A stretch of DNA of 64,000 nt, taken from sequence record PV159336. The stretch is one strand, 5' to 3'. The notes under the pieces are model-generated. The model did no database searches. It saw nothing but the letters and a program-made list of their open reading frames with translations, and had not been told where the DNA came from. How positions within the stretch are numbered: the first letter of the stretch is position 1; the number at the start of each line of letters is the position of its first letter. This document shows, piece by piece, positions 38,006-41,782 of the stretch. Source of the DNA: Escherichia phage W22. A program made the position numbers and the translations under genes.

Positions 38006-40780
38006 TTAGTTTACCAGTTTATTTATGTCTGGTAAAAGATTTATTTCACCTAAGAAATCACCTTCACCTTCCTCTAGCCAACTCTCATATGCTTGTGCAT
38101 GATTATAGTTACCATCAAAAGAATCTGCAACAAATTTTTCTACAGTTTTTCGAGATGTGCCAGCGCCAAATACACCAAGTTTAATACCATTGATCGGTAA
38201 AGTAGGGCTTGTTGGTACTTTCTCTGTTGCAACACGGTTGATATCTATAATCTCCTGTACGGTTGTATTCCATTGTAAGCATTTAACACAACGGGTGTGC
38301 GCTACATACAGTAGGTTTCGCTCTGCCTCTTCTAGTCCTACCCATTCACCAGTCTTTTTATCATAGTTGGAAGGAAAATCATTAGCAACAATAACCTGAT
38401 CCCACTCCAAACCTTTAGACTTATGTGCTGTAGTCAGTGTGACTTTTGCTGTAGGAGAATTTCTATGCGTTCTAAGTGTATGTGCTATAGTGTTTGCCTT
38501 ACCAGAAACTACAATGTTTAACAAGCGTTTAGCATCTGGATCAGCCTCTGCACACTCAACAAATTCATTCCAGTCTGCGTAAGGTAATACAGTTTCATGT
38601 TTTACTTTCTCAATATCTCCTCTCCGAAGAGCATTAACACTATCTACCATAGAGATAAAATCCCTGGTATCTACGTTAATAATAATTTCTTCCCCATCTG
38701 CAATACGATCCATTGCCTCCATAAGCAAGGTTAAATTCTTGCGAAAGATGATAGTGTAAGGTTTTGTATAGTCTACAACATCTGATTTGTAGCTACCTAC
38801 TACAGTATCAAAGCCTTTACCAACCAAAGGATGACGCAAAGGTTCTTTATCACTTAAAATCATATTCGCAATGTTTGCCACTTTGGGGCCAAAACGGAAG
38901 CAAGCAGTTAATGGAAGCTCTGCCCCATACTTAGCTGTTTCAATCATCATATTAGAGCTACCTCTAAATTGATAAATGCAGTTATGGCTAAGAATTTCAT
39001 TGCCAAAGAAGTTAGCAGTATCCTCTACTTCAATATCATAATAGATACCATCACTATCTACAATGTCCACAATTTCTTCTGCCGTTACAGTATCACCATC
39101 TTTTACTAACACAGACATGCCTTTAAACAAACCCGCTGCCGGAATTAAATTATATTTGGCAGTGTTCACAGAGGACATGCATTCTTTTAAAGATGCAAAC
39201 GGAACTATTTCAAGGATCTTTTGTGCAAAACTCAATGCTTCACGATAAGAATTGAAATATTTACGTACACGGTAACGACCTTCCAATTTAGCAACACTTA
39301 CGCTTACACCTGCTTCAATGAGTGAGGCATAGATTGGCATTTCACTTTCTGTCCACTCAAAGCTAACTTGTGTTCCTTTACAACCTTGTGCTCGCAAAGT
39401 CACTGTTAACATTTTTCTTGCATCTACTGTACAATTGATGCTGTGCCAATGTGGATAAGCAAAATGATAATCTTTATCCTCTAAAAGTTTAAAACCATTT
39501 TGTCCGAATTGTTCAAAGATATTGTTGATCCTTTCTTGATTAATACCGCGTGAACTTGCCTCAAATACACAAGTAGGAATGCCATATTGTAAACTGTATG
39601 CCATTTCTTTTTCCATAGCAGCTTCACGGTTTTCAACAATATCCAACACCCACAACTTCTGTGCTTTTTCAGAACGTGTACGTTGCCCCAGTTTAGAAAA
39701 ACCTTCTTTATCATCGAATTTGTTAGTGATCCCTACTCGGAAACCTAAATCTTTTCTCCACATTAGGTATACCACCATCTGATCATCTTTCAGAACATAA
39801 GGTGAAGCCCAAATACGATGGTTATGTGTCATATCTAAAGTCTTACCTTTAGCAGTAATAATATTCCTACCTTTTGTACGTGTAGATAAAGTTTTATTTG
39901 TTACTTTTCTAAATGTAACTTTACCGTTAGAATAAGACTCTACCTTATCACCGATTTGCAGGTCTTTCATTGTAACCTGACCATTTTCGGTATTAAGTAC
40001 CGTGTTTTCTGACACACATTGGAATTCATCACCAACTACCACAATTTGTTTGGCAGATTTAGCATTCCGCAGAATAGACAAGAATGCAGGGTTAACATCC
40101 TGGAATTCATCCCCAAAAATAATGTCATAACCAAGATCAGCACCAGACAATTCAAACAATTTTACATAGGTGTCATGCGTCATCAAAGTATCTGTGTTAG
40201 GGTCAATGCGCTCTCGCCACAATTGTTTTGCATACTTAACTACTTCTGTAATTAGTTTGTGTTCGTTAATACCTTTTCTTTTAATATCTGCAAGATGTAC
40301 ACTAGGAAAATGTTTACGGCTGATAAAAGGATCATCCGAAAATTCAAACTTACCTACGGTTTGCTTGATCATTAAACCAATCATAGCACGAGTTAAAAGT
40401 GTTTTCCCTCGTTTATCAATAAGATTATTAATCTTAAATTTCTTTGCTATCTCACTACCTGTACCTGCAACGTTAACATACTGTCCTTCTGGTCGTGACA
40501 GTTTTGCACGTAAACGATGATCCAGGAATTGATAGCAAATGGAATGCAATGTACGGCATTCTACATTTGGTGGCATCTTACGCCGTGCTTCTTCTGCCAT
40601 GCTTTTATTGAAAGCTAAGTAAAGAATGCGATCTTCTGTACTGTTAGCCAGCAAATAAAGTGTTGACGTTTTTCCTGATCCAGATTTAGCTTGGATAGTT
40701 AAAAACCGATGATCTGGAAAAGCCTCCTTAATAGCTGTTTGCTCTTCTGTTGGAGTAAAACTCAACTCTTTCTTAGCCAT
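38006..40780 (-). CDS. SF1 DNA helicase (UvrD/Dda-like) interrupted by an intein
   Basis: Start taken at MAKKEL; Walker A AKSGSGKT, motif II GDEFQD, motif III split as VVGDEFQ / CIYQFRGS by a 346-aa insert. Confidence 0.8.
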   Translation of the reverse strand: MAKKELSFTPTEEQTAIKEAFPDHRFLTIQAKSGSGKTSTLYLLANSTEDRILYLAFNKSMAEEARRKMPPNVECRTLHSICYQFLDHRLRAKLSRPEGQYVNVAGTGSEIAKKFKINNLIDKRGKTLLTRAMIGLMIKQTVGKFEFSDDPFISRKHFPSVHLADIKRKGINEHKLITEVVKYAKQLWRERIDPNTDTLMTHDTYVKLFELSGADLGYDIIFGDEFQDVNPAFLSILRNAKSAKQIVVVGDEFQCVSENTVLNTENGQVTMKDLQIGDKVESYSNGKVTFRKVTNKTLSTRTKGRNIITAKGKTLDMTHNHRIWASPYVLKDDQMVVYLMWRKDLGFRVGITNKFDDKEGFSKLGQRTRSEKAQKLWVLDIVENREAAMEKEMAYSLQYGIPTCVFEASSRGINQERINNIFEQFGQNGFKLLEDKDYHFAYPHWHSINCTVDARKMLTVTLRAQGCKGTQVSFEWTESEMPIYASLIEAGVSVSVAKLEGRYRVRKYFNSYREALSFAQKILEIVPFASLKECMSSVNTAKYNLIPAAGLFKGMSVLVKDGDTVTAEEIVDIVDSDGIYYDIEVEDTANFFGNEILSHNCIYQFRGSSNMMIETAKYGAELPLTACFRFGPKVANIANMILSDKEPLRHPLVGKGFDTVVGSYKSDVVDYTKPYTIIFRKNLTLLMEAMDRIADGEEIIINVDTRDFISMVDSVNALRRGDIEKVKHETVLPYADWNEFVECAEADPDAKRLLNIVVSGKANTIAHTLRTHRNSPTAKVTLTTAHKSKGLEWDQVIVANDFPSNYDKKTGEWVGLEEAERNLLYVAHTRCVKCLQWNTTVQEIIDINRVATEKVPTSPTLPINGIKLGVFGAGTSRKTVEKFVADSFDGNYNHAQAYESWLEEGEGDFLGEINLLPDINKLVN
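38981..40018 (-). other. intein (346 aa) within helicase motif III
   Basis: Starts CVSENTVLNT (block A), TxxH at MTHNH (block B), ends YDIEVEDTANFFGNEILSHN followed by +1 Cys; flanks rejoin as GDEFQ-CIYQFRGS. Confidence 0.7.
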
Positions 40781-41266: not shown

Positions 41267-41782
41267 CTAGTAAAACCCCTTAACAATTTGTATTAACTCG
41301 GCACAACGGTTGACCAACTTTTCATCGTACAATACACGTTGTGGCATATGTTGTATAATATACTCCATTTGCTCATGCCATGTCCACTTTTCTTTTTTGT
41401 CTGGGATAACATCACTAGCACGAGAATTATCTTTTAATGTTTGTATAATCCAATTACTTGGAAAGTGCTCTCCACCTTTCTTAAATGGTTTATAGTGGCC
41501 TAGAGTGAATTGAGAATCCCCTGTTAGAGCACCCAATTTATTTAGATGGATAATCAAACTACGAAACACATAATATTCATAGATGTTATCCACCGTATAG
41601 CAAGCATAATATTTCAAGATACCCTTATCTCGCGGATACTTACCAACATCCAGATTACACCAGTTGACATTTTCTGGATCATAGTGGTGTTCCTTAAGCC
41701 ATATTTCTCTTTCATCAAAGTCTGGATATATTACCGCCCTACTTACAGAGTCAACAAGTGGAGATTGAGCATCAAAAAACAT
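41267..41782 (-). CDS. hypothetical protein
   Basis: 171 aa ORF. Confidence 0.45.
   Translation of the reverse strand: MFFDAQSPLVDSVSRAVIYPDFDEREIWLKEHHYDPENVNWCNLDVGKYPRDKGILKYYACYTVDNIYEYYVFRSLIIHLNKLGALTGDSQFTLGHYKPFKKGGEHFPSNWIIQTLKDNSRASDVIPDKKEKWTWHEQMEYIIQHMPQRVLYDEKLVNRCAELIQIVKGFY

Follow-up and report, generated by a model that had tools for sequence, protein, structure and literature searches.

A class 1 intein in motif III of a phage UvrD/Rep-type helicase and its putative, divergent GIY-YIG-like nuclease module

Inteins of UvrD-type helicases are known and are listed in surveys (PMC4760082). The intein of the UvrD-type helicase of phage CampHawk has been described (PMC3868849), and that of SPO1, which lies at the same site as the element treated here, is known from a note in its GenBank record. 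This element is an insert in the gene of a UvrD/Rep-type superfamily 1 (SF1) helicase of Escherichia phage W22 (PV159336), of which a stretch of 64,000 nucleotides (nt), herein called the window, was analyzed as a whole. In the record of phage JohannJBalmer (MZ501084.1), the segment is annotated within an "intein-containing UvrD / Rep family helicase precursor," for which helicase and intein are given as mat_peptides, and the records of PaulScherrer (MZ501100.1) and vB_EcoM_ZYD annotate it in like manner; for the BASEL collection, inteins were delimited by comparative annotation (PMC8594841). The intein of these three records is the same element as that of the window, being 97-98% identical at the amino-acid (aa) level and located in the same gene at the same site. 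The records give it the bare label "intein," with no endonuclease type stated there. The intein mat_peptide of MZ501084.1 comprises 347 codons (window 38978-40018) and takes in the Cys+1 codon, which by convention belongs to the C-extein. Most other records, including those of phi92 and of the closest match PHB05, name the gene "DNA helicase" or "hypothetical protein"; in many of them, the closest match included, the gene is mis-described, either as one helicase of 924 aa or as a hypothetical protein. The intein itself is not new, since it is annotated in near-identical genomes. The new part is its endonuclease module, for which the computational evidence is weak but convergent. Overall, the element is probably best explained as a class 1 homing intein in motif III that carries a divergent GIY-YIG-type nuclease module.

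The window comes from a phi92-like coliphage of the genus Justusliebigvirus. The helicase gene of the window is 99.8% identical to that of Escherichia phage vB_EcoM_PHB05 and 97.5% identical to that of phi92 (Justusliebigvirus, Stephanstirmvirinae), and the limits of its coding sequence (CDS) equal those in MZ501084.1. The precursor matches Pfam UvrD-helicase, UvrD_C, and AAA_19, all within the exteins, as well as the DNA helicase family PHROG 1967 (E 8.5e-163). A first-pass annotation, made from the letters of the stretch, had placed a 346-aa intein at 38981-40018. These coordinates hold, and the strand, which had been left unstated, is the minus strand: its translation consists of 346 codons without a stop (CVSENTVLNT...NFFGNEILSHN), whereas the plus-strand translation is full of stops. 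The proposed reading of the helicase, ...VVVGDEFQ|CVSEN...ILSHN|CIYQFRGS..., is likewise seen within one 924-aa open reading frame (ORF) at 38006-40780 on the minus strand, and the Cys start, the TxxH block (MTHNH), and the terminal HN followed by Cys were all placed codon by codon. The features are as follows.

38006..40780, minus strand: precursor CDS of the UvrD/Rep-type (SF1) helicase, 924 aa plus stop, homologue of phi92 gp198
40019..40780, minus strand: N-extein, residues 1-254, with Walker A (GSGKT), motif II (DEFQD), and, as its C-terminal end, the first half of motif III (VVVGDEFQ)
38981..40018, minus strand: intein, 346 aa from Cys1 to Asn346, delimited by the open frame, Hint/intein profiles, and its lack in 98%-identical helicases
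38006..38980, minus strand: C-extein and stop codon, beginning with Cys+1, with CIYQFRGS as the second half of motif III
39803..40018, minus strand: N-terminal Hint (splicing) part, intein residues 1-72, with matches to Pfam Hint, Hint_2, and TIGR01445 over residues 1-73
40016-40018, minus strand: Cys1 codon, checked codon by codon
39818-39829, minus strand: block B, T64-H-N-H67 ("MTHNH"), checked codon by codon
39434..39787, minus strand: central subdomain 1, intein residues 78-195, putative GIY-YIG-like nuclease core
39767-39769, minus strand: Y84 of subdomain 1
39737-39739, minus strand: R94 of subdomain 1
39731-39733, minus strand: G96 of subdomain 1
39680-39682, minus strand: R113 of subdomain 1
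39668-39670, minus strand: E117 of subdomain 1
39650-39652, minus strand: W123 of subdomain 1
39605-39607, minus strand: E138 of subdomain 1
39155..39433, minus strand: central subdomain 2, intein residues 196-288, alpha/beta module, from the alignment and the strands and helices of the model
38981..39154, minus strand: C-terminal Hint part, intein residues 289-346 (blocks F and G), ending in His345-Asn346; TIGR01443 intein_Cterm above cut-off
38981-38986, minus strand: His345-Asn346 codons, checked codon by codon
38978-38980, minus strand: Cys+1 codon, checked codon by codon
38930..40051, minus strand: intein with the co-inherited extein patch, 33 nt upstream (40019-40051) and 51 nt downstream (38930-38980)

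Judged by its sequence, the insert splitting motif III is almost certainly a genuine class 1 intein. It matches Pfam Hint with 29.9 bits (cut-off 29.7) and NCBIfam intein_Cterm (TIGR01443) with 20-23.3 bits (cut-off 15.6); the matches to Intein_splicing (34.2 bits, E 2.7e-8) and to NCBIfam intein_Nterm (TIGR01445, 20.7-21.6 bits) fall slightly under the respective cut-offs of 35.8 and 24.5 bits. Its C-terminal blocks weakly match those of the Spl DnaX, gp41-1, and PI-PkoII inteins among the PDB sequences. Across 106 aligned relatives, C1, H67, and N346 are invariant, and position 64 is either S or T. The residue at +1 is S or C in 123 of 125 related inteins and T in the other two. The conceptual spliced product of 578 aa equals, at 98% identity from end to end, the uninterrupted 1734-nt ORF of alia, outra, 92CQ, and VivaForever; identity is approximately 82% with the helicase of Phapecoctavirus and 30-43% with those of Vibrio, Pseudomonas, and Acinetobacter phages. 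When probed with a 200-nt empty junction, 20 records, including that of the BASEL phage EmilieFrey, have the uninterrupted form at ≥96.5% identity. The intein is present in about 37 records at ≥90% amino-acid identity. For the first-pass annotation, removal of the insert restored a contiguous motif III, GDxxQ-CIYxFRG. A contiguous helicase does result; the natural intein-less alleles, however, have Ser and not Cys at +1, as their empty site reads GDEYQ|SIYQFRG, and Ser stands at this position in nearly all uninterrupted relatives. The same annotation had proposed an alignment with intein-less homologues and had held that helicases all containing the segment as an integral domain would speak against an intein. 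Intein-less alleles are found within the same genus, Justusliebigvirus (alia, outra, 92CQ, VivaForever, EmilieFrey, and others), so this objection falls away.

The central module between the two Hint parts is, from its sequence, quite likely the nuclease of the intein. With moderate confidence, its subdomain 1 appears to be homologous to GIY-YIG domains, on the evidence of profile alignment and a predicted structure, and is herein described as GIY-YIG-like. The profile evidence comes from hhalign, in which a 106-sequence profile of intein residues 78-165 was aligned with a GIY-YIG seed of nine sequences, namely, I-TevI, I-BmoI, three UvrC N termini, YhbQ, Slx1, and two database relatives (the first was verified with the PDB, the other eight with Pfam PF01541). 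The alignment spans 66 columns with a probability of 62.9%, an E-value of 7.1e-5, and a score of 28.3. This score was reached by none of 200 target-column shuffles (mean 9.4, standard deviation 1.9, maximum 17.5) and by none of 100 query-column shuffles (maximum 19.0); as controls, the reversed seed scored 7.2 and subdomain 2 scored 13.7 at a probability of 1.3%. Herein, V-V-Y84 pairs with G-I-Y, F-R94-V-G96 with V-Y-V-G, and E138 with the conserved catalytic Glu column. The counterpart of the "GIY" tyrosine of the first strand is Y84, which is Tyr in 105 of the 106 relatives and, in the hhalign alignment, falls on the GIY motif of both I-TevI and UvrC. That of the metal-binding Glu is E138, kept in 103 of 106 and aligned to the Glu column of the seed.

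The predicted fold points in the same direction. For the whole intein, an AlphaFold model from the single sequence was of no use, with a pLDDT (local distance difference test, as predicted) score of 31. The AlphaFold2 model of the module, made from a 47-sequence alignment, has a pLDDT of 91.7 and a predicted template modeling (TM) score, pTM, of 0.85, and it comprises two subdomains. Model residues 9-109 are arranged as beta-beta-(short alpha)-beta-alpha-alpha-alpha and model residues 131-209 as beta-beta-alpha-beta-alpha-beta. The order beta1-beta2-alpha1-beta3-alpha2-alpha3 of modeled subdomain 1 resembles that of GIY-YIG members. The model of the full precursor in BFVD superposes on the module model with a TM of 0.86. 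A fold comparison with known structures returned the following entries, with three values for each.

9u75_A: 4.8; 4.1 Å; 18
SLX1, 6seh_C: 4.7; 3.4 Å; 13
7wme_A: 4.6; 2.3 Å; 13
I-TevI, 1ln0_A: 4.4; 2.9 Å; 16
UvrC, 1ycz_A: 4.3; 4.1 Å; 20

In a Foldseek search against the viral models of BFVD, the members of the module's own family are followed by a series of homing endonucleases of the GIY-YIG or NUMOD kind, with probabilities of 0.6-0.99. The Foldseek search against the PDB gave nothing below E 0.01. Subdomain 2 yielded no convincing fold match.

Other nuclease types were considered for the module. The first-pass annotation had seen no LAGLIDADG motif in the insert, had suggested a hidden Markov model (HMM) search of the central region for HNH or other nuclease folds, and had called the endonuclease, if any, unusual or degenerate. 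A LAGLIDADG enzyme was indeed found neither by motif nor by HMM nor by fold, the arrangement alpha-beta-beta-alpha-beta-beta-alpha being absent, and this type was rejected. The HMM search gave no nuclease matches, HNH included, and with neither an HNH/beta-beta-alpha-Me motif nor such an HMM found in the intein, the HNH type was rejected as well. Endonucleases encoded on the opposite strand or in another frame occur in some actinophage inteins (10.1101/2025.01.02.630785); here, such an arrangement is unlikely, as the alternative ORFs within the intein are merely 61-77 aa long and match no family. The evidence favors the term "unusual" over "degenerate," because the module is conserved and under purifying selection.

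This conservation is as tight as that of the splicing residues. Y84, M86, G92, R94, G96, R113, E117, W123, A134, E138, and P148 each recur unchanged in 103-106 of the 106 aligned relatives, on a par with C1, H67, and N346. Between the window and phi92, residues 78-195 differ by 13 synonymous and no nonsynonymous changes, which gives a ratio of nonsynonymous (dN) to synonymous (dS) substitution rates of approximately 0; between the window and the Klebsiella phage KP2025, the same residues show eight synonymous and three nonsynonymous changes (dN 0.011, dN/dS 0.08). As the central residues are near-invariant and subdomain 1 is under purifying selection, the module is, by all signs in its sequence, conserved and not a decaying remnant. 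Subdomain 2 (residues 196-288) varies more than any other part of the intein and is missing from the shorter versions of SPO1, phiD12, and RYC. For these residues, comparison of the window with KP2025 gives a dS of 0.77, a dN of 0.23, and a dN/dS of 0.30. The two inteins are otherwise 90% identical, which makes the intein a mosaic; this could reflect an exchange of modules or an adaptation to a different target sequence. A role of subdomain 2 in recognition of the DNA target is only inferred.

The module belongs to a large family. Intein residues 73-288 fall into no Pfam, NCBIfam, or PHROG family of known function, and a PDB match to CFAP161 (E 0.039) was judged to be due to chance. With the central module alone as the query, HMMER retrieves 662 cluster representatives at E≤1e-3, of which 208 remain when the threshold is set to E≤1e-10. 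Among the best 150 of the 662, 125 full-length inteins were delimited. They sit mostly at GDxxQ|[S/C]IYxFRG and otherwise at DEAQDLNK|...|CQH, VDE|...|CQDLN, and LIxHN|...|SKQ of large helicases. By tblastn, the module is also found in the annotated intein of the UvrD-type helicases of SPO1, CampHawk, and Goe2 at the motif III site (GDDDQ|C...THN|SMYSFRGA), in a DNA methylase of a Streptococcus suis phage, and in a helicase of an uncultured jumbo phage, where it is inserted right after motif II. The helicase of Vibrio phage RYC (locus L011, 1403-4057) contains a related intein three residues further downstream (GDKYQQLY|C...THN|CFRGS), which hints at a target site that has moved slightly within motif III. 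Klebsiella phage KP13-16 (OP617741.1) carries an intein that is 60% identical to that of the window at the same motif III site.

Some members of the family share their host protein with further inteins. Metagenomic SF1 helicases of 1100-2500 aa (P0004-P0009, P0015, P0072, P0085, P0090, and P0141) hold two or three inteins of this family at differing conserved motifs (DEAQDLNK|CQH, VDE|CQDLN, GDxxQ|SIY, and LIxHN|SKQ). The orthologous helicase of KP13-16 (locus L003, 1240-4836), a protein of 1198 aa annotated as "hypothetical protein," holds two inteins. The second one, with clear LAGLIDADG motifs (LGVLIGDGY and LLRGLMDTDGS), interrupts the Walker A loop (GTGK|AQPL...VTHN|TSTL) and apparently starts with Ala instead of Cys or Ser.

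Six relatives of the intein are free-standing proteins of 328-366 aa (P0031, P0032, P0046, P0049, P0071, and P0140) that start with Met and lack Cys1. H67 is replaced by Q or C in five of the six, and the C-terminal residue is S, E, T, D, A, or T, never Asn. Y84, R94, G96, R113, W123, and E138 are kept in all six, and a single change, E117Q, occurs in one of them, so that 41 of 42 cells agree overall. The gene of P0032, seen on five contigs, lies 48 nt downstream of a complete, uninterrupted UvrD-type helicase gene, and that of P0049 lies 11 nt downstream of another; the two were located at 1943-2929 of L017 (also in L018 and L019) and at 3340-4392 of L020. In the adjacent helicases, motif III reads GDCNQ|AIYSFRG and GDNFQ|AIYLFRQ, with Ala replacing the +1 nucleophile. 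Loss of the splicing residues, retention of the central residues, and a position beside the gene that is invaded are as expected if the module is an endonuclease. For the wider picture, there is about an even chance that a large, unnamed intein family (at least 662 clusters, for the most part in SF1 helicases of phages and metagenomes, where it occupies four or more sites, plus the DNA methylase) carries a divergent GIY-YIG ("GIY-RVG") endonuclease and is also the source of free-standing, HO-like genes beside their presumed target helicase.

Signs of mobility come from the DNA flanking the intein. Extein and flanking DNA of the window (4.7 kb) was aligned with that of four intein-less and two intein-plus phages. 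About 26 differences are common to all intein-less alleles and confined to positions -33 to +51 nt of the junction; elsewhere, the differences amount to approximately 2%. This patch of approximately 85 nt exists as two haplotypes that are 25-28 differences apart, with 0-3 differences within a haplotype, and which of the two a genome has corresponds without exception to whether it carries the intein. Beyond the patch, the two kinds of genome are intermixed, with 42-108 differences per 4640 nt: there are 73 between the window and the intein-less 92CQ, 94 between the window and the intein-plus OZ035799, and 57 between the intein-less VivaForever and the intein-plus phi92. Because the patch haplotypes are linked to the intein while the flanks are intermixed, the intein and approximately 85 nt of flanking DNA move as a unit between otherwise recombining genomes. 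Roughly two thirds of the sequenced phi92-like genomes carry the intein, and which of them do so is not predicted by how closely their flanking DNA is related. Intein-less outgroup genera agree, downstream of the junction, with the intein-less haplotype SIYQFRGSQNMMKETSTYG; hence, the intein-plus downstream flank CIYQFRGSSNMMIETAKYG looks, from this comparison, imported. In base composition, the intein is not marked as foreign, with a GC content of 0.36-0.38 both inside and outside. As read from these alignments, the presence/absence pattern together with the patch is a signature of homing or co-conversion, and the intein is likely mobile by homing, now or in the recent past.

Genomes under a single species name, Justusliebigvirus alia, differ in intein presence (MN850632.1 versus OZ035799.1/OZ035770.1), which amounts to a polymorphism within a named species. 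Four records of "Campylobacter phage" with the host Campylobacter jejuni (MG065639.1, MG065645.1, MG065656.1, and MG065689.1) contain a helicase and intein 97-99% identical to those of the phi92-like phages of E. coli; the host assignment or labeling of these records looks doubtful.

Several results weigh against a homing intein with a GIY-YIG-type nuclease. The "YIG" motif is absent: the aligned residues are R94-V-G96, in which the Gly is invariant and the Tyr is replaced by an invariant Arg. In the model, R113, kept in 104 of 106 relatives, is part of the short helix that separates strands 2 and 3; it follows the Gly by 17 residues, versus 8 in I-TevI, and hhalign leaves it unpaired with the canonical Arg (R27 of I-TevI). 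None of 47 family members matches a Pfam model, GIY-YIG PF01541 included, even at E≤10; hhalign of a shallow eight-sequence profile against I-TevI alone was negative; and sequence and profile searches of the PDB sequences with the central module returned nothing relevant. In open-access papers and bioRxiv, no report of experimental splicing or DNA cleavage by this intein was found. As for the patch, the intein-less Justusliebigvirus haplotype upstream of the junction (QVVVVGDEYQ) is the derived one relative to the outgroups. The patch is not a one-directional co-conversion tract, the direction of transfer being ambiguous for the upstream 33 nt, and, because the upstream intein-less haplotype is derived, target-site escape or recombination may have contributed to it.

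How far alternative explanations account for these data differs between the parts of the system. With the intein taken as real, the module could be a nuclease or nicking enzyme of a lineage of its own, the GIY-YIG likeness having arisen by convergence or chance; we regard this as unlikely. Less probable still, and quite improbable on its own, is a module that is not a nuclease at all and serves, for example, in DNA binding or as a structural part, the patchy distribution then being due to ordinary recombination, to precise loss, or to a nuclease encoded elsewhere in the phage. The lack of any nuclease HMM match would agree with this, as would a candidate gene for such a nuclease nearby: a 171-aa ORF at 41267-41782 of the window (minus strand), two ORFs upstream, is a homologue of phi92 gp200, for which the phi92 record gives a "predicted HNH endonuclease-like fold." The gp200 homologue, however, also occurs in intein-less phages and is thus unlinked to the intein. 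Moreover, the near-invariant polar residues Y, R, R, E, and E are typical of a catalytic site, the free-standing relatives keep the central residues while losing the splicing residues and adjoin helicase genes, and the conversion patch is centered exactly on the insertion site.

A degenerate endonuclease of the LAGLIDADG type, which is the usual one in inteins, that has lost its motifs is very improbable: many LAGLIDADG meganucleases do appear in the list of the Foldseek search against the PDB, with probabilities of at most 0.5 and TM values of at most 0.25. That the segment is an integral accessory domain of the helicase, and not an intein, has a next to negligible probability. The phi92 record, which notes merely "2 discontinuous domains," would allow for it, but this reading falls because helicases 98% identical to that of the window exist without the segment, which is precisely missing from them. 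In addition, the termini and the Hint HMM matches are canonical, and the same module also occurs elsewhere in helicases and within a DNA methylase. With these intein-less alleles, the integral domain was rejected.

For a class 1 homing intein with a GIY-YIG-type module, the following course of events can be proposed. The element is inserted between the Gln and the next residue of motif III, GDxxQ|[S/C]IYxFRG, and the precursor would be made as a single 924-aa chain. Before splicing, no active helicase would be expected, since the insert keeps the halves of motif III apart. From the conserved residues and the class 1 mechanism, Cys1 would undergo an N-S acyl shift to make a thioester, Cys+1 would take over the N-extein by trans-thioesterification, and Asn346 would cyclize with the help of His345 and thereby free the intein. 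An S-N shift would then leave a normal peptide bond and, hence, a 578-aa helicase with restored motif III. The 210-aa central module would supply an endonuclease that cuts intein-less alleles during co-infection. Either the excised intein or the precursor may be the cutter, and repair from the intein-plus genome would copy in the intein together with adjacent extein sequence. Subdomain 1 is most likely the divergent GIY-YIG-type nuclease (Y84 ... R94-V-G96 ... R113 ... E138), in which Y84, R113, and E138 would form a one-metal active site of the GIY-YIG type. Target recognition may be mediated by subdomain 2, by the Hint domain, or by both.

If true, this reading would support the view of endonucleases having passed on several occasions from free-standing phage genes to inteins, and a domain present in hundreds of unannotated "helicase" or "hypothetical" proteins would receive a name and an active site open to testing (Y84, R113, and E138). 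With intein-plus (JohannJBalmer and PaulScherrer) and intein-less (EmilieFrey) members among the BASEL phages of E. coli K-12, a crossable pair is at hand to study homing in a lytic phage. Should the nuclease be of the GIY-YIG type, it would fill a long-noted gap, such enzymes being known from introns and free-standing genes and not from inteins.

Among the described systems, the intein of SPO1 gp34.33 and CampHawk resembles that of the window in its insertion at the same point of motif III, in subdomain 1, and in the invariant residues. It differs by its length of 275 aa, the lack of subdomain 2, an overall identity of 24%, a CQPAG start, and Ser at +1. With PI-SceI (VMA1) and PI-PkoII, the window intein shares the bipartite logic of a Hint domain that is split by an in-frame endonuclease module and spreads by homing; the module is of the LAGLIDADG type there, whereas no LAGLIDADG motif, HMM match, or fold is found here. 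The arrangement of the free-standing relatives recalls free-standing phage homing endonuclease genes. Yeast HO is a free-standing endonuclease descended from an intein, a LAGLIDADG enzyme of a eukaryote. Like the free-standing relatives, it is a Hint-plus-endonuclease protein without splicing residues; the relatives differ from it in being phage or metagenomic proteins encoded next to a helicase gene.

Known GIY-YIG homing endonucleases are either intron-encoded or free-standing. According to Dunin-Horkawicz et al. in 2006, members of this family had not been found in inteins (PMC1564403), and a further paper describes the family as not known in inteins (PMC2677866). Noncanonical types in actinophage inteins, as surveyed in 2025, are HNH, antisense LAGLIDADG, VSR-like, and endonuclease VII-like enzymes; GIY-YIG is named there in passing among intein-associated endonuclease types (10.1101/2025.01.02.630785). 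In open-access papers and bioRxiv, no description of the endonuclease type of this intein or of GIY-YIG domains inside inteins was found. The similarity of subdomain 1 to GIY-YIG nucleases in structure and profile is weak but recurrent: with I-TevI, I-BmoI, the T4 Seg proteins, UvrC, and SLX1, it shares the predicted order of strands and helices, a conserved Tyr in the first strand, a conserved Gly after the second strand, and a conserved Glu, and it, too, has a conserved Arg. Unlike in these enzymes, the domain of the window intein lies in frame inside a Hint domain, has R-V-G in place of Y-I-G, and goes undetected by PF01541.

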